Below are positions 4,844-51,696 of a stretch of DNA of 64,000 nucleotides, piece by piece. Source of the stretch: an uncultured Acidobacteriota bacterium (GTDB lineage: Bacteria; Acidobacteriota; Thermoanaerobaculia; Multivoradales; UBA5704). The notes below the pieces were generated by a model that worked only from the letters and a program-made list of their open reading frames with translations, did not search any database and was not told the origin of the DNA. How positions within the stretch are numbered: position 1 is the stretch's first letter; every line of letters starts with the position of its first letter. The stretch is taken from the NCBI GenBank assembly GCA_963757335.1, contig CAVWRJ010000011.1, forward strand, positions 71,700-135,699, written 5' to 3'. The position numbers were made by a program, and so were the translations under genes.

Positions 4844-6124
4844 TCAGCCGCCCATCCATCTCATGATCCTCCCTTCCACCTCCTCCCTCGGCCGGCCATA
4901 CCGCTCCCTTGATTGCCGCATCACGGCCTCCTGCCGTCCCGTACTCATACCCCGGACGGGCGCGAGTGTCGTTCCCCGGAACGGCTCCATCGCCCGGCCA
5001 TGTTCGAGGATCCGCGCATAGATCTCGTGCTTCCCCAAGGAGACAAGGTTCCCCATCTTCACGTCGCCGCCGAGCTCGTCTTCCAAGAGGCGGGCGTCGG
5101 ACTGCCCCACCCGGAAGGCGATGAGGTTGCCGACATTGCCGAATACGCTTTGCCGGATCTCGTCGGTCAGCTGATCCAGGTACTGGTGGGCGAGGACGAG
5201 GGCAAGGCCGTATTTCCGGGCCTCCGCAAGGATCGAGGTCAGGGCCTCGGTCGCGAAGCTTTGGAACTCGTCTATATATAGATAGAAGGGGGTGCGGGGT
5301 GCCGCTGTCGGATTTGCCCGTTGCATTGCCGCCCATTGAAACTGCGAGAGAAGAAGGGCTCCGAGGAGCCGCGAATGGTCTTCGCCCACGACCCCTTTCG
5401 CGAGATCGGCAATCATGATCCGGCTATGGTCCATGAGGAAGCCCGCGTCGAAGCGGTTCCTCGCCTGGCCGAAGACGTTCCGGATCGGCGCATTCGCGAG
5501 GAGCCGCCCGATCTTGTTTTGGATCGGGGCGATGGCTTCGAGGCGGAAGCGGCGCTCGTAGCGCGCGTATTCCTCCCTCCAAAAAGCGCGGACGACTGGG
5601 TCCTTGATCCTGGCCGTTACGCGCTCCCGGAAGGCGTCGTCCGCGAGAAGCCGGGGCAGGGCGAGGATCGTGAGCCCGCCGTGGTCCATGAGTGCCGCGA
5701 GGGCATGCCCCAGGATGTATTCCATCCGGGGTCCCCAGCTTCCGCCCCAGATCCCGCGGAATGCGGAGAGCACGCCGGCTACGACGAGGTGCTCGTGGTC
5801 CCGCGGCACCTTGGGCAAGAGGTTCAGGCCCACGGGATGCGCGAGATCGCCCGGATTGAAGTACAAGACCTCGTTCGTCCGCGAGCGGGGTACGAAGTCC
5901 AGGATCTCCCGGGCGAGGTCGCCGTGCGGATCGAGGAGTCCCACTCCGCGCCCGGCATAGAGGTCCTGGAGGATGAGGTTCCGGAGAAGCGTGCTCTTGC
6001 CGAGGCCGGTTTTCCCCACGATATACAAGTGCTGCGCCCGGTCCTCGGGCGCGAGGAGAACGAGCTTCTCCTCGGGAGAGACCCAGTACGTGCGGGTGCC
6101 GAGCGCAATGGGAGTGTGGTCCAT
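4844..6124 (-). CDS. HerA/FtsK-superfamily (TraD/type IV coupling protein-like) DNA-translocase ATPase
   Basis: Walker A GKTGLGKSTLL, LDPHGDL motif, Walker B FYLYIDEFQ, LALVLAHQYLDQL and NLIAFRVGQSDA motifs; paralogous to the ATPase at 23509-26496. Likely start MDHT (ORF-track frame extends to 6184). Confidence 0.75.
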   Translation of the reverse strand: MDHTPIALGTRTYWVSPEEKLVLLAPEDRAQHLYIVGKTGLGKSTLLRNLILQDLYAGRGVGLLDPHGDLAREILDFVPRSRTNEVLYFNPGDLAHPVGLNLLPKVPRDHEHLVVAGVLSAFRGIWGGSWGPRMEYILGHALAALMDHGGLTILALPRLLADDAFRERVTARIKDPVVRAFWREEYARYERRFRLEAIAPIQNKIGRLLANAPIRNVFGQARNRFDAGFLMDHSRIMIADLAKGVVGEDHSRLLGALLLSQFQWAAMQRANPTAAPRTPFYLYIDEFQSFATEALTSILAEARKYGLALVLAHQYLDQLTDEIRQSVFGNVGNLIAFRVGQSDARLLEDELGGDVKMGNLVSLGKHEIYARILEHGRAMEPFRGTTLAPVRGMSTGRQEAVMRQSRERYGRPREEVEGRIMRWMGG

Positions 6125-6667
6125 GTGAGTGGTAGTTGCGCCCTGCCTCTCTTCCCCTCCCCGTGGGGAGCCAGTCCTCCCCAAGCGGGGAGGAACCGCA
6201 GAGGCCCCTGTCCTGGCGGCCGGCGGTTACGCCCGCATCAAGGAGTTGGTGACCGAGCGGGCGCGGTAAGAGAGGTGGGCGCGGGAGAGTGTGGCGCGTT
6301 TTGACCTCACGGCAAAGGCGGAGAAGTTCGACGCCGTGGCAGTAGTGGCGCCTGCGGCGCCGACCCTTCGTTTGCCAGTCCCCACCGCTGTTGGGCAGGC
6401 CGAATTTCGGCCGGTGGGCCCGACTCGCGCGCTTTGGTCGAAGGGTCCTGCGATAGCGGAAAGACCCGAGACCCGTTAGCCGTCAGGAAAACGCGCGAGT
6501 CGGGCGCAGCCCGGCAGCGGTGGGGAGCCAGTTTATGAAGCCCCGTATGGGGATTCGGCCGTCCGCCTTTGGCGGAGCCCCTACATACCTTGTATGTACC
6601 AGGGTATGTACTTGCGTGAGTGCCGTTTCCTTGAAGGATCACAACAAAGACTTGCATTTTTGTCTTG

Positions 6668-8951: not shown

Positions 8952-9002
8952 GCCCCACCCTCTCCCCCACTTCCAACCCAAGAGACAAAAGGAGGTCCGC
9001 CT

Positions 9003-9902
9003 ATGGCGACCATAGAAGCTCGTGCCGTGGCCCGCGAGAGGGTCACCGCTATCGCCCATGACATCCTCGCCGCCTTCGAGTCCGGGGAGCTGCCCCAGGC
9101 ACTCGCAAAGCTCTTCATCCACCGGAAGATCGAAGTGCCCTCGAAGCACTGGACCTGGACGAATCGCTTGATCGGCATCCGGAAGGGCCACATCTATGCC
9201 GCCGGCTTCAGGCAGTGGCAGGAGATCGGGAGGAAGGTGCGGAAGGGCCAGCACGCCTTCCATATCCTCGCCCCGAAGATCCTGAGGGCAAAACAGGACG
9301 ACGAGGAACGCGGGGTGAAGGAGGGCGACCTCCTCTGCCTCCGGTTCCTCGCAGTCCCCGTCTTCGGCTATCTCCAGACCGAGGGTGAGCCCCTGCCCGG
9401 AGCGGAAGACGAGCCGGAGTTCGTGGGTCAGCTGCCCCTCGTCGAGGTCGCCCGCTCCTGGAACCTCGCAGTCGAGGTCTACTCCCAGCCCGATGCTCCC
9501 GACCGCCTGGGCTTCTTTGCCGCCGGCCGGGGCATAGGGCTCGGGGTCCGGAACCTCCAGACCTGGACGCACGAGCTCGTGCACGCCGCCGACCATCGGC
9601 TCGGGTGCCACCCGCGGCCGGGCCTCGACGCGGAGGTGGTCGCCGAGTTAGGCGGGGCGATCCTCCTCGAATGCCTGGGGGAGACGGTCGAGAGCGACCG
9701 CGGCGGCGCCTATGAGTATCTCCGGCGGCACTGCGAAAAGGAGAAGCGGAACCTCCTCGGGGCCTGTACCGAGCTTCTCGACCGCACCTGTGCCTGCGTC
9801 ACGCTCATCCTCCAGACCGCGGATGCCCTCACGGGAGAAGCAGTCGGGCCGGAGACACCACCTCCGGCCGCGGTGCCTGCCGTGGCCGCACTCTCTGCCT
9901 AA
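9003..9902 (+). CDS. ardC: ArdC-like anti-restriction protein (ssDNA-binding ArdC-N domain plus HExxH zincin-like metallopeptidase domain)
   Basis: N-terminal KHWTWTNRLIGIRKGHIYAAGFRQWQEIGRKVRKGQHAFHI resembles the ArdC/DUF1738 ssDNA-binding domain; C-terminal HELVHAADH is an HExxH metalloprotease motif. Confidence 0.75.
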   Translation: MATIEARAVARERVTAIAHDILAAFESGELPQALAKLFIHRKIEVPSKHWTWTNRLIGIRKGHIYAAGFRQWQEIGRKVRKGQHAFHILAPKILRAKQDDEERGVKEGDLLCLRFLAVPVFGYLQTEGEPLPGAEDEPEFVGQLPLVEVARSWNLAVEVYSQPDAPDRLGFFAAGRGIGLGVRNLQTWTHELVHAADHRLGCHPRPGLDAEVVAELGGAILLECLGETVESDRGGAYEYLRRHCEKEKRNLLGACTELLDRTCACVTLILQTADALTGEAVGPETPPPAAVPAVAALSA

Positions 9903-23491: not shown

Positions 23492-23508
23492 CTGTGGGCT
23501 CGTAGGAG

Positions 23509-26496
23509 ATGGGTCAACCTACCCTCCCCAAGCGCCTGACTGAGCAGTTCTACGCCTTCGAACTCCGGGGCCGGGGCTACGAGGAGTTCCCCTATCCGGT
23601 AGAACTCGAACCGCCCTTCCGGCCCTTCCCCGGATACTCGCTTCCCCGCGTCGAGGACGACGGCCACCGGCCGACCATCCTCAGCCGTCTCTTCAGGCCT
23701 TCCCGCCGGAGGGTTGAAGCGCCCGAGACCCAAGAGCCAGAGCCCACGCCCTTCGAGGTCGAGGAGCCGATCACCGAGTGCGTGGTCTCCCTCCCCGAGG
23801 ACAAGGTGGTCTCCCGGGAACTCGCAGAGCGCTTCCTGCTTTCGGTCGCGGGCGCGGAGCTGCCGCTCGCCTTCGAGATCCTGGGACTCCCCGAGCGCCT
23901 TGAAGCACGGATCGCTTCCCGGGCGCCGGACACCTCCCTTCTCGCGAACGAACTCCGCGCCTTCTTCCCCGAGGTCTCGATCGGAGAAGAAGACGGCGGG
24001 CTCCGGAGCGCGTGGACAAGGGGTAAGGGCGAGACCGTCTGCCTCCACTTCGGCCTGGCCCGCGAGTTCATGCTGCCGCTCGTCTCCTTCCGCTCCCTCG
24101 ATCCCGATCCCCTTCTCCCGCTCCTTGGGGCACTCTCCGAGCTCGATCCCGGGGAGGCGGGCCTCGTCCAGGTCCTCTTCGAGCGGGTCAGGGAGCCGTG
24201 GGCCGAGAGCGTCATGCGGGCGGTCGTGACCGGGAAGGGCGAGCCCTTCTTCGCCGACTTCCCGGAACTCACAAAGCTCGCCAAGGAGAAGATTGCGAGC
24301 CCCCTCTATGCCGTCTGCCTGCGACTTGCGGCGAAGAGCAGAACCCTCGCCGGGGCCTGGCGCATCCTTCGCGATCTCGCGGGGAGCTTGACCCACTTCG
24401 GGAACCCCGTGGGAAACGAACTTCTCCCCTTGGCCTCCGAGGAGGGCGAGGAAGCCGCTACGGAGATCTTCCGCCGCACGAGCCGCCGCCCGGGGATGCT
24501 CCTCGGGCTCGACGAACTCACGGGGCTCGTCCATCTCCCGAGCGCCTCGGTAAAGATCCCGAAGCTCGTCCGCGAGGTGCGGCGGACAAAAGCAGCGCCG
24601 ATGCTCGCGGGAGGCATCCTCCTCGGGGAGAACTTGCATCACGGAAGGACCGTCCCTGTCCGACTGCCCGAGGAGCTTCGCCTCCGGCACCTGCATGTCG
24701 TCGGGGGCTCCGGGACCGGCAAGTCCACCCTCCTCCTCGACCTTATCTCGCAGGACATCGAAGCCGGCCGGGGCGTCGCCGTCCTCGATCCGCATGGCGA
24801 TCTTGTGGACGAGGTTCTCGGCCGCATCCCCGAACAGCGACTCGCGGACGTGATCCTCTTCGACCCGGCGGATACAGAGCACCCCCTCGCCTGGAACATC
24901 CTCGAAGCCCACTCCGAACTCGAACGCACCCTCCTCGCCTCGGATCTCGTGGGGCTCTTCCGCCGCTTCTCGACCTCCTGGGGCGATCAGATGACCTCGG
25001 TCCTCGGGAATGCCGTCCTCGCCCTCCTCGACTGCCCTGGTTCCACCCTCCTTGACCTCCGCGAGTTCCTCGTAGACCGCGCGTCCCGGGAGAAGCTCCT
25101 CAAGGCCGTAGAGGACCCGTACCTGCTCTCATACTTCCGGCAGGAGTTCTCTCTTGCAGCCGGGAAGAGCGTGGGGGCGATCCTCACGAGGCTCGACGGC
25201 TTCCTCCGGAGCCGGACGGTACGCGCGATCGTGGGCGCGCGCGAAAGCCGGCTCGACCTTCGGGCAGTCATGGACCGGGGGCAGATCTTCCTCGCGCGGC
25301 TCTCAGAGGGGGCGATCGGGGAGGAGAACGCCGCACTCCTCGGGAGCCTCCTCGTCTCGAAGTTCCACCAGGTAGCCATGAGCCGCCAAGAGATCCGGCG
25401 GGAGGAGCGGCGGCCCTTCTTCCTCTACGCCGACGAGTGCCAGGAGGTCGCGACCCCCTCCATGGCTCTCCTCCTTTCGGGTGGCCGGAAGTATGGCCTC
25501 GGCCTCACCCTCGCGCACCAGGATCTCCGCCAGCTCGATACCAAAGCTCCCGAAGTCGCCTCGGCGCTTATGGCGAACGCGGGGACAGGCGTTGTCTTCC
25601 GGGTCGGTGAGCGGGACGCGAAGGCGCTCGCCGAGGGCCTCTCCTACTTCGGCGCCGCCGATCTCCTGGGGCTGCGGGTCGGTGAGGCCGTGGCCCGGAT
25701 CGAAAACGCACGGGGCGATTGCAACCTCCGAACGCGGCTTCTGTCTCCTGTTCCCTCAGACATCGCCCTCCATCGCCGGGAGGCGGTCACTCTGCACTCG
25801 CGGGAGCGCTACGCCACCCGGGTCGAGGCGGTGGAAGCGCGGAGGAGAGAGGAGATACCGCCTCGCCCGGAGACAAAGGACGTGCCGGAAGTCACCGCGC
25901 CTGCCCGGGAGCCGGAAGAGCGCTCCACGACGCCGCTGCCGCCGAAGCGGGCAGCGCGGTCCCCAGTTCCCCCTCCACCCCTCGGTCGGGGCGGGCCGGA
26001 GCATCAGTACCTTCAGGAACTCGTGAAGCGCTGGGGAGAGTCCCATGGCTACCGCGCCGTGATCGAAGAAGAGATCCCGGACGGCAAGGGCAGCGTCGAT
26101 GTGTCTCTTCGGAGCGACGATTTTTCGATCGCGTGCGAGATCTCCGTCACCTCGACCGTGGCACAGGAGGTTGGGAACGCAAAGAAGTGCCTCGAAGCCG
26201 GTTTTGATGAGGTCGCGATCCTCGCCCTCGCGCGTCCGCGCCTCGCAAAAATCGAGGCGGCTCTCAAGGCAAAGCTCACAGCTGCCGACCTCGCCCGCGT
26301 GCATGTGGTCTCCTCGGAAGAACTCTTCTCCCTGCTCTCCATGAGGCCCGTGACTACGGAGACCGTGGTCGGTGGATACAAGGTGAAAGTGCGCAGGAAG
26401 ACCGTTGAGACGAGTGAAGAGGCCATCCGCTACCGCGCCCTCACCGAGGTCATCGCAAAGAGCGTGCGCCGCCTGGAGGGCAAGGAAAAGCCATAG
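23509..26496 (+). CDS. HerA/FtsK-superfamily (TraD-like) ATPase fused to ~370-aa N-terminal unknown domain and C-terminal PD-(D/E)xK-like tail
   Basis: HLHVVGGSGTGKSTLL (Walker A), LDPHGDL, FFLYADECQ (Walker B), GLGLTLAHQDLRQL and GVVFRVGERDAKAL match the ATPase at 4844-6124; C-terminal GSVDVSL...IACEISVTS...NAKK is reminiscent of restriction-endonuclease-fold residues. Confidence 0.7.
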   Translation: MGQPTLPKRLTEQFYAFELRGRGYEEFPYPVELEPPFRPFPGYSLPRVEDDGHRPTILSRLFRPSRRRVEAPETQEPEPTPFEVEEPITECVVSLPEDKVVSRELAERFLLSVAGAELPLAFEILGLPERLEARIASRAPDTSLLANELRAFFPEVSIGEEDGGLRSAWTRGKGETVCLHFGLAREFMLPLVSFRSLDPDPLLPLLGALSELDPGEAGLVQVLFERVREPWAESVMRAVVTGKGEPFFADFPELTKLAKEKIASPLYAVCLRLAAKSRTLAGAWRILRDLAGSLTHFGNPVGNELLPLASEEGEEAATEIFRRTSRRPGMLLGLDELTGLVHLPSASVKIPKLVREVRRTKAAPMLAGGILLGENLHHGRTVPVRLPEELRLRHLHVVGGSGTGKSTLLLDLISQDIEAGRGVAVLDPHGDLVDEVLGRIPEQRLADVILFDPADTEHPLAWNILEAHSELERTLLASDLVGLFRRFSTSWGDQMTSVLGNAVLALLDCPGSTLLDLREFLVDRASREKLLKAVEDPYLLSYFRQEFSLAAGKSVGAILTRLDGFLRSRTVRAIVGARESRLDLRAVMDRGQIFLARLSEGAIGEENAALLGSLLVSKFHQVAMSRQEIRREERRPFFLYADECQEVATPSMALLLSGGRKYGLGLTLAHQDLRQLDTKAPEVASALMANAGTGVVFRVGERDAKALAEGLSYFGAADLLGLRVGEAVARIENARGDCNLRTRLLSPVPSDIALHRREAVTLHSRERYATRVEAVEARRREEIPPRPETKDVPEVTAPAREPEERSTTPLPPKRAARSPVPPPPLGRGGPEHQYLQELVKRWGESHGYRAVIEEEIPDGKGSVDVSLRSDDFSIACEISVTSTVAQEVGNAKKCLEAGFDEVAILALARPRLAKIEAALKAKLTAADLARVHVVSSEELFSLLSMRPVTTETVVGGYKVKVRRKTVETSEEAIRYRALTEVIAKSVRRLEGKEKP

Positions 26497-28459: not shown

Positions 28460-29240
28460 TGCTCTGAGTGCCGCTACCTCGGCTCTCGGCACCGAGACTC
28501 GAAGACAAAGACCGGGACACTGCCTTCAACCGCCGCCATCTCGGGTCGCGGTACCGCGACTCGAAGACAGAGTCCCCGGACAATGCTTCCGGGGACCGCT
28601 CTCTCGGCTCTCGGTACCGAAACTTGACGACAGAGACTTGGACCAAGCCTTGGCTGCCGCTATTGCGGGTCTCGGGACCGGGACTCGATGACGGAGCGCC
28701 GGGACTTGGGTTCAGGGTCCCGGGACTTCGGTCCTCCGCCAGGGAGAAAGACCGTCGTCCCGCGACTCTGGGTCGTGGTCCCCGGACTCGACGTCGCAAT
28801 CCCGGGACGAAGAATCGCCGTCCCCCGGCCGAGGGTCGCGGTCCCGGGATGGCGGTCGGGGTCGCGGGACTCGGAGTCTCCGGCCCGCTACGTTGAGTCG
28901 CGGTACCGGGACTTGAGAGCGCAGCCCCGGGACGGCGGTCTTAAACCCTGGAGGCCAACCGTGGTGACGGGACGGCGACTCGTCGTCCCCGGACTACGAC
29001 TCTCCGTCCCGAGACTTCGAGTCTCGGTCCCGGGACTCGACATCGACGGTGCGGCACCGGAGACGGAGTCCAGGCAGCGAAGACGTCGTCTCCTTACCTG
29101 GCTATCGAGTCCGGGGAACGCGGAACAGAGTCCCGGGACATTGCCACTAAGTTTTGGCAGCGGTAGTAAAACCGGGGGACATCGGAACGGAGTTTGCGGA
29201 CGGCGACTCTCGGTGCGGGGACAACAAGCGTTTCGGCGAG
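28460..29240. repeat. array of about 12 degenerate tandem repeats with about 62-bp period, each containing short palindromes (e.g. TCGCGGTACCGCGA, TCTCGGCACCGAGA, GGTCCCGGGACTCG)
   Basis: Direct reading: recurring CTCGG(T/C)ACCG(A/G)GACT(C/T)GA(A/C)GACAGAG..CCGGGACA units; fills the convergent intergenic region between the recombinase and the SDR gene; overlapping ORFs in all frames. Confidence 0.75.
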
Positions 29241-40435: not shown

Positions 40436-40615
40436 CGCTGACCGGCGCTTCTGGGGGGGGAGGAGCTTCCCCGGGAAGCCATAAAGATGTCGTAAAGACT
40501 CGCATAGCTCTATATCAATACGCACCCGATCGGAGCTACAGTAGGTTCCAGCCAATCCGCCGTAGTACTTAAGGATGCCCGCGGGAGATCCCGTGGGATT
40601 TTGGAGGGAGAACCT

Positions 40616-41146
40616 ATGTGGACCCGGGTGAGGGACCGCCAGCGGGGTTTCACCTTGATCGAGCTGCTGATCGTCGTCGCCATCATCGGGATCATCGCCG
40701 CCCTGCTCATTCCGAACTTCCTGGACGCGCTCCAGAAGGCGAAGCAGAAGCGGACGGTGGCCGACATGCGAAACGCCGGTACCGCCATGTTCTCCTGGCT
40801 GACCGACCAGGTCGGCGCCGCCGCCGCGGGCGCCGCCGCCACCACGGTCGACCTGACGAGCTACGGCACGGTGACGGACGGCAGCAACCTGCTCTCGGTC
40901 CTCGTCCCGCAGTATCTCCAGGCGGTGCCCGAGGTGGACGGCTGGAAGACCAACTACGACTACTACATGAAGACCGCCACCCCGCTCGATCCGCAGGTCA
41001 TGGCCATCCACAGCTACGGCCGCGACAAGAAAAAGCAGCTGACGACCGCGATCAACGTCACCTCCTTCGATCCCACCGACTACGACCAGGACATCCTCTG
41101 GGCCGACGGCTTCTTCGTCCGCTGGCCGCAGAAGGTCACCCCCTGA
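40616..41146 (+). CDS. type II secretion / type IV pilus pseudopilin (prepilin-type N-terminal cleavage/methylation domain)
   Basis: GGAGGGAG RBS; MWTRVRDRQRGFTLIELLIVVAIIGIIAALLIPNF is a class III signal peptide; ORF-track frame opens at 40601. Confidence 0.8.
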   Translation: MWTRVRDRQRGFTLIELLIVVAIIGIIAALLIPNFLDALQKAKQKRTVADMRNAGTAMFSWLTDQVGAAAAGAAATTVDLTSYGTVTDGSNLLSVLVPQYLQAVPEVDGWKTNYDYYMKTATPLDPQVMAIHSYGRDKKKQLTTAINVTSFDPTDYDQDILWADGFFVRWPQKVTP

Positions 41147-41147
41147 T

Positions 41148-41390
41148 TTAAGGCCTGAACGCCGCGACAGACAGGGCGCCCCGCGACGCCTCGACAGGCA
41201 CCTCCACAGACGCTGGCCTCGGCCGCGCTCCGTCCAGCTTCACCAGCTGGGTGGGCGGCCGCAGGCCCGCGGGCGAGACATGCCCCGGGACCACGAAGTG
41301 CCAGAGCCCGGCCACGACCAACGCCAGGATCAGAGTCCCGCAGCCGAACGGGATTCCACAGCAGCAACCACGTACCTGGACGTTCGACAT
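41148..41390 (-). CDS. hypothetical small membrane protein (Cys cluster CCCGIPFGCG)
   Basis: ORF track only; TM-like LILALVVAGLWHFVV. Confidence 0.25.
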   Translation of the reverse strand: MSNVQVRGCCCGIPFGCGTLILALVVAGLWHFVVPGHVSPAGLRPPTQLVKLDGARPRPASVEVPVEASRGALSVAAFRP

Positions 41391-41470
41391 GGCGGGAGAG
41401 CTCCTTCCTCAAAGAGGCCGTACCGCTACGGCCGCCGAGATCCGATGCAAGAGCAGCTCCACGCCCCCCC

Positions 41471-41550
41471 CGATGTCGACGATGTCGGACTCTGTCGGAC
41501 GATGTCGGGAGGTGTCGAACGGTGTCGGTTTATGTCGATTATGTCGGTCA
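41471..41550 (+). promoter_or_regulatory. eight direct repeats of NNTGTCG(G/A)NN at 9-10 bp (helical) spacing, candidate transcription-factor/enhancer binding array
   Basis: cgATGTCGac gATGTCGgac tcTGTCGgac gaTGTCGgga ggTGTCGaac ggTGTCGgtt taTGTCGatt aTGTCGgtca, followed by inverted repeat CTGCCGG-N13-CCGGCAG. Confidence 0.6.
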
Positions 41551-41598
41551 CTGCCGGTTTTTCACCGACGCCGGCAGGCGCCCCCCGCGGAGCCAGCC

Positions 41599-41614
41599 GG
41601 GCACGGCCCTTGCT
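41599..41614 (+). promoter_or_regulatory. candidate sigma-54 (-24/-12) promoter GGGCACG-N4-TTGCT
   Basis: Matches TGGCACG-N4-TTGCW with correct GG/GC spacing; about 85 bp upstream of ATG 41700 and 50-130 bp downstream of the TGTCG repeat array. Confidence 0.45.
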
Positions 41615-41699
41615 TTTTCAGCTTTTCGATTCGTTGTTCCATCTCTGTCGTAAGTGTTACTGAGAGACCATTCTCAGAATCGAAAGGAAGGGGTGCACC

Positions 41700-42929
41700 A
41701 TGAAGATTCGTTTCGCTGTGTTGGTATTGACCGTCGCGGCGAGCTCGCTCTGGCTCGCCGGGAGCGGTGGTTCGCAGCCGGTGCTCGCCGCGACCGCCGG
41801 GAGGGTCGCCGCGCCGGCCGCCTGCCAGTTTCCGCTCGGCTGGGTGGGTACGCCGGCGGAGACCGCCTGGCGGCTCTTCGTCGCGACGAACTGCCCGGCT
41901 GGCGGCACTCAGCTCGTCTGGGAGACCTGGATCGAGCAGGACGCCCTCTATCCCGCGAGCGGATCGGCAGCGCAGAAGGGCGCCAAGGCCAAGCGCCTCC
42001 ACGGGAGCCCGCTGTTCAAGGCTTTGATGGCCCGGAAGAACGGCATGACGGCCGAGCTCTCCCCGGCCACGGAGTGCAACAAGATGGGGAGCCCGCCGTC
42101 AAACGTCGTCCCCAACGCCACGGTCTGCGAGGAGGTGCGGCTCAACCCCTCGGCCCGGACGTTCGTCCAGACCAAGGGCTACCAGGTGCGCTCCGGCCAG
42201 ATCAAGGCCGCCCAGTCCGGCACCAACATCCAGTTCCCGACCGCCGGGATCGAGGTCAAGGTGGACTGGATTCCCGCCACCGACTTCGCGACGCCTTTCA
42301 CCTGCGCCAACCCGCCCCAGGGCGTGCACGTCGAGACGATCGACGGCGCCTGCTACGCCATGGCCGGCATGCACCTGATCTCGAAGATCGCGCCGAACTG
42401 GATCTGGGCGACCTTCGAGCCCCAGAGCATGGAAACCAACCCCAATCGCTGCATCACGTTCGGAGCGTGCAACGACCCCTGGGGCTCGGTCCCGCCGACG
42501 AGCAGCGGCGGCGCCGGCGGCTTCACTCAGCTGACCCCCGCTCTCCAGGCCCTCATGAAGAGCGCCAACCTCGCGCCGGAATTCCTCAACTACCGCCTGG
42601 ACGGCGTCCAGACCCAGTTCGGCACCGCCGCCAACCCGACCCTCCTCGGCAACTCGATCATCGAGGGCGAGAACGTCGGCATGACGACCGGCACGGCGTC
42701 CTGCATCACCTGCCACTCGGTCTCCACCGTCAAGACCGACGGCACGGACGGGATCACCATTCTGGGGAGCTTGCCGACGCCGCCGGTCGGGCCGGAGTAC
42801 GTCGTCCCCCAGGGCTGGATCGCGCGGGACTTCGTCTGGTCGCTGGCGCTCGCCTGCCCCGGTGGGATCCAGAACTGCTCGTCGTCCGTAGCGGCGGCGA
42901 AACCGGCGAAGAAAACGAAGACGAAGTAA
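41700..42929 (+). CDS. secreted protein with a single CxxCH heme-binding motif (putative c-type cytochrome domain), Lys-rich C-terminus
   Basis: GGAAGGGG RBS; signal peptide MKIRFAVLVLTVAASSLWLAGSGG; ASCITCHSV (CxxCH); many conserved Cys. Confidence 0.6.
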   Translation: MKIRFAVLVLTVAASSLWLAGSGGSQPVLAATAGRVAAPAACQFPLGWVGTPAETAWRLFVATNCPAGGTQLVWETWIEQDALYPASGSAAQKGAKAKRLHGSPLFKALMARKNGMTAELSPATECNKMGSPPSNVVPNATVCEEVRLNPSARTFVQTKGYQVRSGQIKAAQSGTNIQFPTAGIEVKVDWIPATDFATPFTCANPPQGVHVETIDGACYAMAGMHLISKIAPNWIWATFEPQSMETNPNRCITFGACNDPWGSVPPTSSGGAGGFTQLTPALQALMKSANLAPEFLNYRLDGVQTQFGTAANPTLLGNSIIEGENVGMTTGTASCITCHSVSTVKTDGTDGITILGSLPTPPVGPEYVVPQGWIARDFVWSLALACPGGIQNCSSSVAAAKPAKKTKTK

Positions 42930-42939
42930 CGATGGACGT

Positions 42940-43420
42940 CCGGGCGGGATCGGCGGTGCCGGTCCCGCTGCCACGGCGCGAGACACGAACGGCTCCAGCG
43001 AGACACTAGCGACCCTCCACGAGACACGAAGCGTCGACGGCGAGACACGATGTGTTGGCGGTGGGACGCGAAGTTCCGACGGTGGGACACGAAGCGTCGG
43101 CGGTGGGACACGAAGCTTCGGCGGTGGGACACGCGCGTCCTGCCGCGAGACACAGCCGGCCGGCAGCGAGACACAGCCGGCCGGCAGCGAGACACAGCCG
43201 GCCGGCAGCGAGACACAGCCGGCCGGCACGCCGTGGCCCGCGGCAGGCGCGTGGTGACTCGCAGCAGGCGCGTAGTGACTCGCGGCAGGCACGTAGTGAC
43301 TCGCGGCAGGCGCGTCGTGACTCGCGGCAGGCGCGTCGTGGCCCGCGGCAGGCGCGTGGTGGCCCGCGGCAGGCATCTGGTGTCTCGGTCCAACCGAGGG
43401 GTCTTACCTGCCGCGCTCGC
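42940..43420. repeat. about 23 tandem 21-bp repeats in three sub-families: GCGAGACACAGCCGGCCGGCA x4 (perfect), GGTGGGACACGAAGCGTCGGC-like x4, CGCGGCAGGCGCGTNGTGACT-like x7
   Basis: Direct reading; occupies the convergent intergenic region between the CxxCH-protein gene and etfA; stop-free in several frames, producing artefactual heptad-repeat ORFs. Confidence 0.8.
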
Positions 43421-46694: not shown

Positions 46695-46743
46695 TGCCCG
46701 TCGCCCCGAGCGTGAAAGGTCCGGTCTGCTCAGGCGGCACGTC

Positions 46744-49700
46744 CTAGAGCTTGAAGGAGTAGGTGCCAACGAAGTCGTTACTGGGGCTCCCCACGGTCAG
46801 GCTATAGGTGCCGCCCTTGGTGAGGGTGATGTTCCCGACGTCCCCTTCGAACGGAGCGCTGAAAACCTGCTGACCGCTGTCGTCGGTCAACGTCCAGCTG
46901 ATCCGGAAGGTGCCGCCGGCCAGGTAGTCGAAGTAGACCGTCTGCCCCGCAGCCGCGGTGAACGTGTAGACGTCCATCGTCCCCGGAGTCTCGATCCGCC
47001 CTGCCCCCGCGACCGGCACCCCGTCCGCGACCGTGTCGCCGATCGAGATCGCGAAGGTCTGCGGCGGCGGCACGTCCCAGAGCTTGAAGGAGTAGGTGCC
47101 AGAGAAGTCGTTACCGGGGCTCCCCACGGTCAGGCTATAGGTGCCGCCCTTGGTGAGGGTGATGTTCCCGACGTCGCCTTCGAACGGAGCGCTGAAGACC
47201 TGATGTCCGCTGTCGTCGGTCAAGATCCAGCTGATACGGAAGGTGCCGCCGGCCAGGTAGTCGAAGTAGACCGTCTGCCCCGGGGCGGCGGTGAACGTGT
47301 AGACGTCCATCGTCCCCGGAGTCTCGATCCGCCCCGCCCCCGCGGCCGGCACCCCGTCCGCGACCGTGTCGCCGATCGAGATCGCGAAGGTCTGCGGCGG
47401 CGGCACGTTCCAGAGCTTGAAGGAGTAGGTGCCCGTGAAGGCATTGTTAGGGCTCCCCACGATCAGGGTATAGGTGCCGCCCTTGGCGAGGGTGATGTTG
47501 CCGACATCGCCTTCGAACGGAGCGCTGAAGACCTGCTGCCCGGTATCGTCGGTCAATATCCAGGCGATCCGGAAGGTGCCGCCGGCCAGGTACTCGAAAT
47601 AGACCGTCTGCCCCGCGGCGGCGCTGAAGGTATAGGCGTCCATCGTCCCCGGAGTCTCGATCCGCCCCGCGCCCGCAGCCGGCATCCCGTCCGCGACCGT
47701 GTCGCCGATCGAGATGGCGAAGGTCCGCGGCGGCGGCACGTCCCAGAGCTTGAAGGAGTAGGTGCCCGTGAAGGCATTGTTAGGGCTCCCCACGGTCAGG
47801 GTATAGGTGCCGCCCTTGGCGAGGGTGAAATTCCCGACGTCGCCTTCGAACGGAGCGCTGAAGACCTGCTGCCCGGTATCGTCGGTCAATGTCCAGGCGA
47901 TCCGGAAGGTGCCGCCGGCCAGGTACTGGAAGTAGACCGTCTGCCCCGCGGCGGCGCTGAAGGTATAGGCGTCCATCGTCCCCGGAGTCTCGATCCGCCC
48001 CGCCCCCGCAGCCGGCATCCCGTCCGCGACGGTGTCGCCGATCGAGATGGCGAAGGTCCGCGGCGGCGGCACGTCCCAGAGCTTGAAGGAGTAGGTGCCC
48101 GTGAAGGCGTTGTTGGGGCTCCCCACGGTCAGGGTATAGGTGCCGCCCTTGGCGAGGGTGAAATTCCCGACGTCGCCTTCGAACGGAGCGCTGAAGACCT
48201 GCTGCCCGGTATCGTCGGTCAATGTCCAGGCGATCCGGAAGGTGCCGCCGGCCAGGTACTGGAAGTAGACCGTCTGCCCCGCGGCGGCGGTGAAGGTATA
48301 GGCGTCCATCGTCCCCGGAGTCTCGATCCGCCCCGCCCCCGCGGCCGGCACCCCGTCCGCGACGGTGTCGCCGATCGCGATCGCGAAGGTCTGCGGCGGC
48401 GGCACGTCCCAGAGCTTGAAGGAGTAGGTGCCGACGAAGCCGCTGCTGGAGCTCCCTACGGTCAGGGTATAGGTGCCGCCCTTCCTGAGGGTGATGTTGC
48501 CGACGTCGCCTTCGAACGGAGCGCTGAAGACCTGCTGCCCGCTGTCGTCGGTCAACGTCCAGGCGATCCGGAAGGTGCCGCCGGCCAGGTACTGGAAGTA
48601 GACCGTCTGCCCCGCGGCGGCGGTGAACGAATAGCGATCGATTTCCCCGGCGACGGCGATCGCGGCGTCGATCTCCTGGCCGATCGCGATGTTGCGGCCC
48701 AGGGGATCGGTCCCCTGGGCGACCTCGGTGCCGTCGTTCACCCCGTCGCCGTCGGTGTCGGGGTTGTGCGGGTCGGTACCCAGGATCGTCTCGGCCACGT
48801 CCGGCAGGCCGTCGCCGTCGCTGTCGAGCGGATCGGGATCGCCCAGGTGAGCCTTCGGCAGCTCCATGCTCGTGCCGTTCGCTCCGGCGAGGAAGTAGGT
48901 AGTCGCGACCTGGAGCGGCTGCGTCTGGAGGTACGAAACCCGGTAGAACGTGGTCGGCTGGAGGACCATGGTGTCGAAAACTCCGGTCCCCCCCAGCCGG
49001 CCGCGCTGCACGGTGGTGCCGTTGACCGGCGCGAGCGCGTAGTAGAAACGGGTGGGGGCGGGCATCAGAGCGGTCAGGTCGCCGATGAACTGGGGCCCCT
49101 TGATATAGCCGTCCCAGGCGCTCTGCCAACCGCGGCGCGCCAGCTCGGCGCTGGTGTCGGACAGGTTCTGACCGGCGGTCACGATGGCGTCGTAGTCGGC
49201 CTGCGGCAGCTGGCTCGCGGCGATCTGGTTCATCCGATCGACCAGGGCGGAGACGTCGGCCGACGTGAGCGTCGCCGGCAGGGGCACGGCGAGGAGGGTT
49301 GCCCGCTCGGCCGTGGTGATCTGGCGGCCCCCGGGGCTCGCGGGTGCGAGAGCCTGCCCGAGGGCAGCGACGAACGGATCGAGCTCGGGGGTCATGGCCT
49401 TCCGCCACTTCGGCGAGCCGTTGACGGTGTCGAACAGCGTGGCGAGCGCGGCATTGAGAGCGTCCTGCTCCGAGAACGGATCGGCGGCGACCGTCGCCTG
49501 CACCCGTGGCTGGAGGCGCTCGCGGACCCGGTGGATGCCGGAGCAGGACTGGTCGACGCAGCTCTGGAAGGTATTGATGGGTCCGGCGACGTCCATGGCG
49601 CAGTCCACGGCATCCATCACGCTGGTGATCGCGATCCCCAACGGGCCGGAGAGGGGGACGCATCCCAGGCCGGAACTGCCGACATTCCAAGCGATCGAGC

Positions 49701-51558
49701 CCCAGCCGCAACCCTCCGCGGACCGGCACTGCGCCGCGATGGAGCCGATTCCGTTGCCGACGCTCAGCGCACAGCCGATCCCTGGAATGCTCCTCGCGAG
49801 GCTCTTCCCCACCGCGTCCTCGACACGCGAGATGACTAGCGAGGAGGAGCAATCCCCGAAGCCCCGGAAAATATCCAGCGCTTTCGGGACACAGCCCGGG
49901 CAAGGGCCGCTGCCGTCGCCCGCCCCACCGCCGTTCGCGCTGCTGCCCGGCTGCGCGGCGTGCCAGCCCGGGGTCAGGATGCCGTAGCCCGGGTCCGAGC
50001 AGACGAGAGTGCCGTCGGCAGAGATGGTCATGGGGCCCACGACCTCCCAGCGGCCGGCCGCGTGGTTGAAGCTCCAGAGGGCGCTCTTGGCGCCGGCCGC
50101 CAGAGTCTGGCCGGTCTTGGGATCGGGTAGATTGGGGAAGCATACCGGGGCCGGGGCGTCGAAGTTCGAGGGCCCGTCGGTCTGGACGGTGATGACGAGC
50201 GGGAAGGTGAGGCCGGGCGGCAGCTTGCCGGGCAGACGGTCGGGCGGCACCGGCGCGATCCCCGCCTGGCCGCCGTGGGTGCCGTCGTTGGCGAAGAGCG
50301 AGCCTGCCGGCACGGTCAGCTGCACGCTCGCAAACTGCGGATACTGGGCGAGGATCGAGGGCGCGAAGTGGAGCACCGTGGGCGCCGTGTTGCTCACCGG
50401 CTGCAGGGTGCCGGGGACGATCAGCGGCAGGTAGGAGGTGCCGATGTTCGTCGACTGTCCGGGGACCGGGTCCCAGGCCTTGCCCACGTAGGGATAGTAG
50501 GCCCCCGGAGGCACCCCGTTGGTCGCCGTCCGGCCGTCGACGTGGACGAAGAACCGCTGGCCCGGTGCCGGGTCGAGGCAGAAGTTGCCGTCGGCACCGG
50601 TCGTGGCCCGGAGGGTCGCCTCGGCGCCGTCGACCGTGATCGTCGCGCCCTGAAGCGGGTTGTCGACCGAGTTGCCGCTGCCGTCGACCGCGAGCTCGGA
50701 GGCCACCACCCGGCCGCAGACCGAGGTGCCGGGGACGACGGTCAAGTCCAGGGTGCGGAAGGAGAGGACGCGAGTGCCCCCCGGAGCGCCGTCGGCGTCG
50801 GCGTCGACCGGGCGGCCACGGCGGTCGCGCAACTGGCTGCCATCGATCGTGACATCGACCTCCGCCGCGGTAGGGAGGAGGTCGTGGTAGAAGAGGGTGA
50901 CGCTCTTGGCGTCGGTCGAGATGTAGAGCCGGGCCGGCAGGTCGGTCCCTCCCGAGCGGGCGTGGATCGCGGCGGTGGTGACGCTCGTGGGATCGAGGGT
51001 GCCGTTGAAGTGAAGGATCGTCTCTCGCGTCATCGCCACGTCGGCCTCGGAGTCGGTCGGGCTGCTGGTGGCGAGGGTGACCAGGGGCTCGGGGGCGAAG
51101 TAGCCGTAGATGTCGAAGACGAGATGGACCGTCCCCGCCCCGGTGACGACCGGGTAGGCCTGCACGGTGCCGGAGCCATCGGCCGCGAGCGGCAGGATGG
51201 CGTTGTTGGTGCGCGTCAGGCCCCGCTTGAGGTTGATGGAGCTGGCGAGCGGACGGGTCCCGTCGCCCGGGAAAAGGGTGATGAAGCCGTCGCCGCTGGG
51301 AGAGACCACGGCGAGGTTCGCCACCACGGCGGTAGCGTCGGCGGGGACCCCGCATCGGCCGGTGACGGTGAAATTGCGCGGGATACCCGAGATCAGGGCA
51401 GGGCCACCGAAAGGCCCGTCCACGTAGCGGGTGTCGAGAAGCCGACAGGGGGAAACGGTATAGAGGGAGACACCGCCATCCGCCTTCGCCCAGTCAGCGA
51501 GCCCCATCCAGTGCAGAAAAGCCAGCGCAAAGACGACCGCCCAACGACGTCCCGCCAT
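46744..51558 (-). CDS. giant secreted repeat protein (1604 aa): N-terminal ~125-aa domain shared with the 17792-22726 protein, acidic Ca-binding (thrombospondin-type-3-like) repeats, about 7 C-terminal tandem PPC-like (pre-peptidase C-terminal) domains
   Basis: Signal peptide MAGRRWAVVFALAFLHWMGLADWAKA; DSDGDGLPD...DTDGDGVNDGTE; repeated GRIETPGTMDAYTFTAAAGQTVYFQYLAGGTFRIAWTLTDDTGQQVFSAPFEGDVGN..LAKGGTYTLTVGSPNNAFTGTYSFKLWD units. Confidence 0.85.
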   Translation of the reverse strand: MAGRRWAVVFALAFLHWMGLADWAKADGGVSLYTVSPCRLLDTRYVDGPFGGPALISGIPRNFTVTGRCGVPADATAVVANLAVVSPSGDGFITLFPGDGTRPLASSINLKRGLTRTNNAILPLAADGSGTVQAYPVVTGAGTVHLVFDIYGYFAPEPLVTLATSSPTDSEADVAMTRETILHFNGTLDPTSVTTAAIHARSGGTDLPARLYISTDAKSVTLFYHDLLPTAAEVDVTIDGSQLRDRRGRPVDADADGAPGGTRVLSFRTLDLTVVPGTSVCGRVVASELAVDGSGNSVDNPLQGATITVDGAEATLRATTGADGNFCLDPAPGQRFFVHVDGRTATNGVPPGAYYPYVGKAWDPVPGQSTNIGTSYLPLIVPGTLQPVSNTAPTVLHFAPSILAQYPQFASVQLTVPAGSLFANDGTHGGQAGIAPVPPDRLPGKLPPGLTFPLVITVQTDGPSNFDAPAPVCFPNLPDPKTGQTLAAGAKSALWSFNHAAGRWEVVGPMTISADGTLVCSDPGYGILTPGWHAAQPGSSANGGGAGDGSGPCPGCVPKALDIFRGFGDCSSSLVISRVEDAVGKSLARSIPGIGCALSVGNGIGSIAAQCRSAEGCGWGSIAWNVGSSGLGCVPLSGPLGIAITSVMDAVDCAMDVAGPINTFQSCVDQSCSGIHRVRERLQPRVQATVAADPFSEQDALNAALATLFDTVNGSPKWRKAMTPELDPFVAALGQALAPASPGGRQITTAERATLLAVPLPATLTSADVSALVDRMNQIAASQLPQADYDAIVTAGQNLSDTSAELARRGWQSAWDGYIKGPQFIGDLTALMPAPTRFYYALAPVNGTTVQRGRLGGTGVFDTMVLQPTTFYRVSYLQTQPLQVATTYFLAGANGTSMELPKAHLGDPDPLDSDGDGLPDVAETILGTDPHNPDTDGDGVNDGTEVAQGTDPLGRNIAIGQEIDAAIAVAGEIDRYSFTAAAGQTVYFQYLAGGTFRIAWTLTDDSGQQVFSAPFEGDVGNITLRKGGTYTLTVGSSSSGFVGTYSFKLWDVPPPQTFAIAIGDTVADGVPAAGAGRIETPGTMDAYTFTAAAGQTVYFQYLAGGTFRIAWTLTDDTGQQVFSAPFEGDVGNFTLAKGGTYTLTVGSPNNAFTGTYSFKLWDVPPPRTFAISIGDTVADGMPAAGAGRIETPGTMDAYTFSAAAGQTVYFQYLAGGTFRIAWTLTDDTGQQVFSAPFEGDVGNFTLAKGGTYTLTVGSPNNAFTGTYSFKLWDVPPPRTFAISIGDTVADGMPAAGAGRIETPGTMDAYTFSAAAGQTVYFEYLAGGTFRIAWILTDDTGQQVFSAPFEGDVGNITLAKGGTYTLIVGSPNNAFTGTYSFKLWNVPPPQTFAISIGDTVADGVPAAGAGRIETPGTMDVYTFTAAPGQTVYFDYLAGGTFRISWILTDDSGHQVFSAPFEGDVGNITLTKGGTYSLTVGSPGNDFSGTYSFKLWDVPPPQTFAISIGDTVADGVPVAGAGRIETPGTMDVYTFTAAAGQTVYFDYLAGGTFRISWTLTDDSGQQVFSAPFEGDVGNITLTKGGTYSLTVGSPSNDFVGTYSFKL
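47000..48650. repeat. about 5-6 near-identical (over 90%) 330-bp tandem DNA repeats within the giant gene, encoding the PPC-like domains
   Basis: Visible long exact matches, e.g. ccagagcttgaaggagtaggtgcc...gatccgccccgcccccgc recurring every about 330 bp. Confidence 0.8.
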
Positions 51559-51696
51559 TCCTTATCTCCTCTTCTTGCGTGCCTCTAGGAGAATCCATCC
51601 AGCCGGGCTTGCCCGGCGATCCAACGGTCTTCACTCAACCCAGACCTCTAACTTAGAATCCGAAAACGGACTGTAGATTAGCATCGATTTAGCCGA

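Follow-up and report, generated by a model that had tools for sequence, protein, structure and literature searches.

A 64,000-nucleotide stretch of DNA from an uncultured Acidobacteriota bacterium (hereafter the window, 65.5% G+C) carries eight direct copies of the word TGTCG at 41474–41546, set about 10 bp apart. They lie in the intergenic space 41391–41699, between a leftward small open reading frame (ORF) and a rightward gene for a secreted 409-aa protein with a CxxCH motif, and a sigma-54-type -24/-12 promoter element stands between the array and that gene. Taken together, the placement of these elements and their retention in relatives make it probable that the array is the enhancer, or upstream activating sequence (UAS), of a sigma-54-dependent promoter. 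Here we infer the binding of a protein, a dependence on sigma-54, the activator's class and an effect of copy number from the architecture of the sequence and from its conservation.

A sigma-54 promoter with an upstream enhancer is a well-known kind of element. What is new is the motif itself, along with the predicted activator in an uncultured Acidobacteriota lineage; a natural series in which one half-site is found paired in dyads, with its copies in both orientations, or in a strictly registered array that reaches eight or nine copies; and a change of copy number between strains that are 97% identical.

The repeat array and the -24/-12 element

The elements on which the argument turns are listed below. 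A half-site is the 6-mer YGTCRG, and distances written with a minus sign are counted from the first G of the promoter GG.

41474–41547, + strand: eight direct half-sites (TGTCGA, TGTCGG, TGTCGG, TGTCGG, TGTCGA, TGTCGG, TGTCGA, TGTCGG)
41552–41557, + strand: degenerate ninth repeat, TGCCGG, with one mismatch
41565–41570, - strand: perfect inverted half-site, CCGACG on the + strand and CGTCGG on the - strand, at -35
41571–41577, - strand: CCGGCAG, right arm of an inverted repeat
41599–41614, + strand: sigma-54-type -24/-12 promoter GGGCACGgcccTTGCT, with GG at 41600–41601, GC at 41612–41613 and a predicted transcription start near 41625
41700–42929, + strand: gene for the secreted 409-aa protein, which has an invariant CxxCH (C335–H339) and a weak cytochrome P460/c'-beta-like fold

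On the + strand the TGTCG copies start at 41474, 41483, 41493, 41503, 41513, 41523, 41533 and 41542, giving steps of 9, 10, 10, 10, 10, 10 and 9 bp (mean 9.71 bp) and half-sites from -126 to -58. The number of copies and their spacing thus agree with the preliminary description of this DNA, which had been made from the sequence alone. TGTCG occurs 81 times in the window and its complement CGACA 71 times; pairs of TGTCG 9–11 bp apart are found only at the array, which is the sole phased run in the 64 kb. The arrangement is not random: a pattern of three copies at 10-bp spacing appeared in none of 100 dinucleotide shuffles, and Tandem Repeats Finder (TRF) reports the array as a period-10 repeat. 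All copies had also been placed on one face of the helix, which holds for neighbours and fails for the array as a whole. At 10.5 bp per turn each copy is rotated by about -27° and the array by about -189° from end to end; with a mean spacing of 9.71 bp its two ends therefore lie on opposite faces of relaxed B-DNA (a drift of about 190°), while neighbouring copies share a common face.

Further half-sites follow downstream. The degenerate ninth repeat stands in 10-bp phase with the array, exactly 10 bp past the eighth copy, and a counterpart reading TGCCGA is found at the same place in L001, a near-identical strain. The perfect inverted half-site at -35 is matched there by an inverted CCGACA at -30. 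An inverted repeat, CTGCCGG-N13-CCGGCAG, had been described between the array and the promoter; it is present (41551–41557 and 41571–41577), but it is not kept as a hairpin in L001 or L002. In L001 the arms read CTGCCGA and CCGACAG, which pair at five of seven positions, and L002 has nothing comparable. The right arm includes CCGGCA, an inverted half-site with one mismatch that is a perfect CCGACA in L001, and the two arms, with the perfect inverted CCGACG at 41565 between them, read better as degenerate half-sites, TGCCGG direct and CCGGCA inverted. We take the stretch 41551–41577 to be the promoter-proximal end of the same putative binding region as the array.

The promoter GGGCACGgcccTTGCT agrees with TGGCACG-N4-TTGCW at 11 of the 12 specified positions and has a GG–GC gap of exactly 10 nt. 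Only two sites on either strand of the window, this one included, reach 10 of 12. The sequence GGCACGgcccTTGC (41600–41613) is the only exact -24/-12 match in the 64 kb, and the core GGCACG-N4-TTGC occurs once on the two strands together against an expectation of 0.14. The element ends 86 nt ahead of the ATG at 41700; the near-consensus element with correct spacing that had been noted some 85 bp ahead of the start codon is confirmed. A scan for sigma-70-like promoters gave none on the + strand.

Half-sites and promoter in related genomes

We read the upstream DNA at about 95 loci that code for homologues of the 409-aa protein. The -24/-12 element is kept in nine relatives from a Thermoanaerobaculia-like clade (L001, L002, L004, L007, L057, L204, L206, L209 and L210) whose proteins share 61–97% aa identity with that of the window. 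Among these nine the named genomes are labelled Thermoanaerobaculia, Thermoanaerobaculaceae or Acidobacteriota, and the others are metagenome contigs. In the window and in the eight relatives for which the start codon was located, the GG of the element lies 85–138 nt upstream of the ATG; L004, whose ATG was not mapped, keeps the element as well. YGTCRG copies occur about 30–155 bp upstream of the GG in eight of the nine, and in the ninth, L209, the contig is cut at the promoter. The layouts are as follows, with aa identity in brackets and a dot at the join of two abutting half-sites.

Window: eight direct copies, -126 to -58, plus inverted CCGACG at -35
L001 (97%): six direct copies, -108 to -57, plus inverted CCGACA at -30
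L002/L003 (83%): seven direct copies in exact 10-bp steps, -107 to -47
L206–208 (64%): TGTCGG at -89, -78 and -68, with one-mismatch copies at about -100 and about -58 (3–5 copies)
L004 (73%): CCGACG·CGTCGG twice, 22 bp apart
L057 (69%): CTGACG·TGTCAG and CTGACG·TGTCGG, 22 bp apart
L204 (71%): CTGACA·TGTCAG twice, 22 bp apart
L007 (61%): two abutting-dyad 12-mers, 12 bp apart
L210 (71%): mixed orientation, two forward and three reverse half-sites
L209 (74%): contig starts at the promoter

The 12-mer CYGACRYGTCRG (CYGACR·YGTCRG) consists of two half-sites back to back. It occurs eight times in the 925 kb that were compared, and all eight are the pairs in the L004, L057, L204 and L007 promoters. 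Clusters of at least five half-sites per 90 bp were found at the promoters of the clade and at one other place, in L060, the background being 0.29 sites per 90 bp. The genes around the CxxCH gene differ from one locus to another: in the window they are pilin-like and ETF genes, L204 has ferritin and an ECF sigma factor, and L206 has hyp genes. Since half-sites and promoter are found in these differing neighbourhoods, they form one module that belongs to the CxxCH gene and is conserved with it.

At some 75 other loci with homologues (Acidobacteriaceae, Alphaproteobacteria, Dokdonella, Binataceae and others) array and promoter are both missing, and these distant homologues are therefore uninformative on this regulator. 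In L205, L211, L213 and L215 we found no half-site cluster and no convincing -24/-12 element, and L215 has a sigma-70-like TTGACA-N17-TATATT in place of the latter. As homologues outside the clade are without both elements, promoter and half-sites have been gained and lost together.

A four-way alignment of the window, L001, L002 and L206 shows where selection has acted: the TGTCG cores, GGCAC..CC.TTGCT and the AAGGA of the ribosome-binding site are invariant, while the spacers vary. The comparison of the window with L001 is the most direct. The two are 97.4% identical in coding DNA and 93.8% identical over the 80 bp ahead of the array; the arrays differ by a 20-bp indel of two units, and the substitutions within them avoid the TGTCG cores. 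Given this near-identity, a two-unit difference means that copy number changes on a strain-level timescale, presumably by slippage. The register of the array relative to the promoter is kept: each of the four array-bearing lineages (window, L001, L002, L206) has copies at -57/-58, -67/-68 and -77/-78. On a rough neighbour-joining tree of the protein the dyad form falls on three branches and the direct arrays on two, which suggests that the dyads are ancestral and that arrays arose twice.

Proposed enhancer function and its alternatives

In the mechanism that we favour, RNA polymerase with sigma-54 would form a closed complex on GGCACG-N4-TTGC (41600–41613). The activator, whose gene would lie in another part of the genome and which is most likely an AAA+ bacterial enhancer-binding protein (bEBP) of the NtrC family, would read the 6-mer YGTCRG, bind in a cooperative manner to the eight to ten copies found from -126 to -35 and then oligomerise. 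It would touch the polymerase from upstream and use ATP to open the promoter, with transcription starting near 41625, and the output would be the switching on of the gene for the secreted, P460/c'-beta-like CxxCH haem protein. The recognition unit would be the single half-site, its arrangement being free to evolve: relatives would use two abutting dyads two helical turns apart, and the lineage of the window an array of uniform direction that becomes longer or shorter by 10 bp at a time. Such growth and shrinkage probably tunes occupancy or output.

The preliminary description had likened the position of the array to that of an enhancer of a sigma-54 promoter, and the conservation of promoter and half-sites with the gene in nine relatives argues for this. 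The clustering is of the enhancer type, with half-sites from -126 to -35 in the window and from about -30 to -155 in the relatives, far above background. Classical activators cannot drive -24/-12 promoters. In NtrC-type enhancers the usual form is two dyad sites about 100 bp upstream (PMC11841059). NtrC-family enhancers such as the NmpR sites of Myxococcus xanthus (GCGCA-N5-TGCGC; PMC11841059) have several sites some 50–150 bp upstream of a -24/-12 element, as found here, and L004, L057 and L204 resemble them in having exactly two dyads, on the same side and two turns apart. In contrast to these enhancers, the window has eight head-to-tail half-sites, the 12-mer dyad of the relatives, with its halves abutting, is much tighter than the 15–17-bp dyads of the NtrC type, and the activator is not encoded nearby. 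Direct repeats have a precedent in the M. xanthus bEBP Nla28, for which clusters of 3–5 imperfect copies upstream of sigma-54 promoters are reported and read as half-sites of bEBP dimers (PMC9765219). The Nla28 motif is an 8-bp CT(C/G)CG(C/G)AG at irregular spacing and its binding has been shown, whereas the present array has another motif in eight or nine copies and a strict 9–10-bp register, and varies in copy number between strains.

Several observations weigh against an enhancer bound by a bEBP. Neither a bEBP gene (GAFTGA, a sigma-54-type Walker A, ESELFGH) nor an RpoN box or rpoN was found in the 64-kb window, and no bEBP gene stands beside the CxxCH gene in the 5–13-kb loci of the clade; the only bEBP among all loci scanned, in L081, is unrelated. 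Head-to-tail repeats are not the usual form of a bEBP site, and dyads are absent from the window, L001, L002 and L206. In the relatives that have it, the 12-bp abutting dyad sets the GAC and GTC triplets 5 bp apart. NtrC/Fis-type dyads measure about 17 bp, so that the DNA-binding domain may not be a helix-turn-helix of the Fis type, and each half-site may be read by a single subunit. Finally, there is no IHF consensus between array and promoter, and the nearest perfect direct copy is merely 58 bp from the GG.

A further idea, which we put forward only tentatively, is that the activator reads single 6-bp half-sites irrespective of orientation, with the array as a copy-number-variable "ruler". 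We are just as tentative about the corollary, in which 3 to 8–10 units, slipping by 10 bp between 97%-identical strains, would template or tune the activator oligomer as a minisatellite rheostat. If half-sites are read without regard to orientation, orthologous enhancers could consequently alternate between a compact pair of dyads and a long array with all units pointing the same way, and the DNA-binding domain may be something other than the usual Fis-type dimer. The usual description of a sigma-54 enhancer is of paired dyad sites that bind dimeric helix-turn-helix domains, whereas the series here comprises dyads, mixed orientations and phased arrays of 3 to 8 copies. Should binding be confirmed, it would offer a ready test of how site number, orientation and phasing act in the assembly of an enhancer-binding oligomer, and of whether slippage in an enhancer tunes expression. 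The motif YGTCRG/CYGACRYGTCRG provides a handle for a regulon and activator search in uncultured Thermoanaerobaculia. It also flags a widespread secreted CxxCH family (at least 711 homologues, no Pfam family) as one that appears to be tightly regulated in this clade.

It is unlikely, in our estimate, that the array binds a regulator which is not an enhancer-binding protein, such as an OmpR/PhoB-type winged-helix or a ribbon-helix-helix protein, activating an unrecognised sigma-70 promoter or else repressing or modulating the sigma-54 promoter or the divergent small ORF. Head-to-tail direct repeats at 10–11 bp, about one helical turn, are the usual form of OmpR/PhoB sites (the pho box CTGTCAT has an 11-bp period and OmpR F1–F3 a 10-bp period), and the steps of 9, 10, 10, 10, 10, 10 and 9 bp fit them, as does the TGTC core, which recalls that of the pho box. 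Long arrays of short, orientation-free repeats are typical of ribbon-helix-helix operators (omega, ParR). The only match of the sigma-70 scan, GTGAAA-16-CATAAT on the - strand (41565 to 41538), overlaps the last two repeats, and the lack of a bEBP gene nearby also counts in favour of such a regulator. However, OmpR/PhoB sites abut a sigma-70 -35, whereas here only the -24/-12 has been retained along with the array as a promoter element, and it is closed to classical activators. The - strand -10 is lost in L001 (CATCAA), and the divergent ORF is absent from L002 and L206. The OmpR/PhoB-type binder that the preliminary description had offered as an example is disfavoured because this half-site is found at orthologous promoters in abutting dyads (L004, L057, L204, L007) or with copies in both orientations (L210); inverted dyads are unexpected for winged-helix tandem dimers. 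For a ribbon-helix-helix protein, no partition or replication genes were found flanking the array. An iteron or partition centromere (ParR, omega) was rejected, as the neighbours are the pilin-like gene, the small ORF, the haem protein gene and ETF genes, and the array follows the gene elsewhere. The likeness to the "0A boxes" of Spo0A is a resemblance only: tandem 0A boxes are spaced 10 bp and their 7-mer TGTCGAA occurs literally in unit 5, but the preferred form here is TGTCGG, and Spo0A is confined to endospore-forming Firmicutes, whereas the organism of the window is, by its relatives, a 65% G+C bacterium of the Acidobacteriota/Thermoanaerobaculia kind. We find it very improbable that the array works in RNA or for the small ORF, as CGACA repeats in a leftward 5' leader bound by an RNA-binding protein. 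The - strand sigma-70-like promoter would put most of the array in such a leader, and the ORF, which L001 has as well, is preceded by a good ribosome-binding site. Yet that promoter's -10 is not retained in L001, Rfam gave no match, and the orientation and distance of the array are fixed with respect to the downstream promoter and not to the upstream gene; moreover, L002 and L206–208 keep the array without the ORF, so the array is not conserved for its sake.

A more specific proposal is that the activator is the orthologue of PilR and the array a PilR-type site that ties the gene to the type IV pilus regulon; we give it little credence. Jin, Ishimoto and Lory (1994) reportedly showed by footprinting that PilR occupies four tandem (C/G)TGTC-containing repeats ahead of the sigma-54 promoter of pilA, and the tandem TGTC-containing elements said to mark this region in Pseudomonas aeruginosa are matched here. 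"GTCT elements" have been named as a hallmark of PilR sites (PMC6058289), and in the window (40601–41146), L001 and L002 the neighbour on the upstream side is a prepilin-type gene. However, the consensus for P. aeruginosa PilR is TGT-N11-ACA, which is NifA-like (PMC8035640), and both TGT-N11-ACA and TGT-N10-ACA are absent from all nine promoter regions. The target here is a haem protein gene and not a pilin gene, the region upstream of the prepilin-type gene has neither a -24/-12 element nor TGTC repeats, the CxxCH gene has no pilin gene beside it in L204, L057 and L206, and pilS/pilR were not found in the window. Another named candidate, a nitric-oxide-sensing activator of the NorR type, was a speculation prompted by the P460-like fold; we set it aside in that no half-site arrangement resembles the NorR motif GT-N7-AC, the motif itself not having been scanned for. 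We regard as least probable of all that the array is a functionless minisatellite made by slippage which lies beside the promoter by chance. Its copy number differs between near-identical strains (8 versus 6), the units in L002 are rather uniform (TGTCGGTTGC/A), as after recent duplication, and TGTCG-containing satellites of 5 or 10 bp are common in unrelated DNA among the metagenome matches listed. Against this, the cores are exact while the spacers have diverged, the register relative to the -24 element is kept, and the same half-site forms non-repetitive dyads at this promoter in four relatives, a form that is met at no other place in the 925 kb.

The gene under the proposed enhancer and other features of the window

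The N-terminus of the 409-aa protein resembles a signal peptide and its C-I-x-C-H motif is invariant, which bears out the earlier labelling as a secreted CxxCH protein. The protein matches no Pfam or NCBIfam family, and its at least 711 homologues are hypothetical proteins. Its predicted leader and the ORF on the far side of the array add the following features.

41625–41699, + strand: predicted 5' leader of about 75 nt, with inverted repeats and the ribosome-binding site
41684–41693, + strand: ribosome-binding site AAGGAAGGGG, of which AAGGA is the invariant part
41148–41390, - strand: divergent small ORF of 80 aa, with one predicted membrane helix, a CCCG motif and a strong ribosome-binding site, GAGGAAGGAG

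The leader holds a perfect 9-bp inverted repeat, TTTCGATTC/GAATCGAAA (41624–41632 and 41677–41685), through which the 5' end of the transcript would base-pair with the stretch immediately ahead of the ribosome-binding site, and an inner stem, CTGAGA/TCTCAG (41660–41665 and 41672–41677). In L001 the outer stem shows a double change from A-T to G-C, and a stem-loop of some kind lies just 5' of the ribosome-binding site in every relative. Plain alignment of the nine leaders gave no shared RNA structure, and Rfam at its gathering threshold gave zero matches over the whole window. The small ORF matches no family; the L001 copy is called at 99 aa. The promoter of this ORF must be located within the array or close to it.

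We also scanned metagenomes for four TGTCG copies at 10-bp spacing and considered the matches listed. These were mostly unrelated 5- or 10-bp satellites on low-GC or eukaryote-like contigs, and they yielded no information on a regulon. Sigma-54-like matches in L107, L165 and L197 were rejected as parts of other tandem repeats. On the reverse strand of L169 (1730–2010), an unrelated metagenome contig of 55% G+C, five TGTCG copies at 10-bp spacing and with variable spacers are followed 75 bp later by TGGCCAatgacTTGCT and then by an ORF with a signal peptide. Judging by this layout, L169 may hold an analogous enhancer–promoter pair in another organism, the sole possible analogue among the matches listed.

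Other tandem repeats occur in the window. Where the haem protein gene and the ETF-alpha gene converge, the gap that separates them (42978–43374) is filled by three 21-bp families that abut one another: about seven copies of (C/T)G(A/G)GACACGAAGCGTCGNCGG, then four perfect copies of GCGAGACACAGCCGGCCGGCA, then 7.4 copies of CGGCAGGCGCGTCGTGACTCG. Related 21-bp arrays with other copy numbers are present in L001 (7385–7594). We rejected them as sites related to the array, their cores GAGACAC and GGGACAC not fitting YGTCRG. A 62-bp repeat (28470–28696; 3.7 copies, 72% matches) lies where there is no confident ORF. A 333-bp repeat (46733–48634; 5.7 copies, 94% identical) lies inside the ORF 46747–51561 on the - strand, which codes for a repetitive surface protein of 1605 aa with Ig-like, TSP3 and PPC domains; L001 seems to be without this protein at that place, since there a PilZ gene directly follows the SDR gene.

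The region 4800–26500 carries genes of a conjugative element, namely two ORFs for TrwB/TraG-type coupling proteins (4847–6226 on the - strand and 23506–26493 on the + strand) and an ArdC-like ORF (8952–9899). Since its third-codon-position G+C is lower than elsewhere in the window, this region is probably a mobile element that has integrated.

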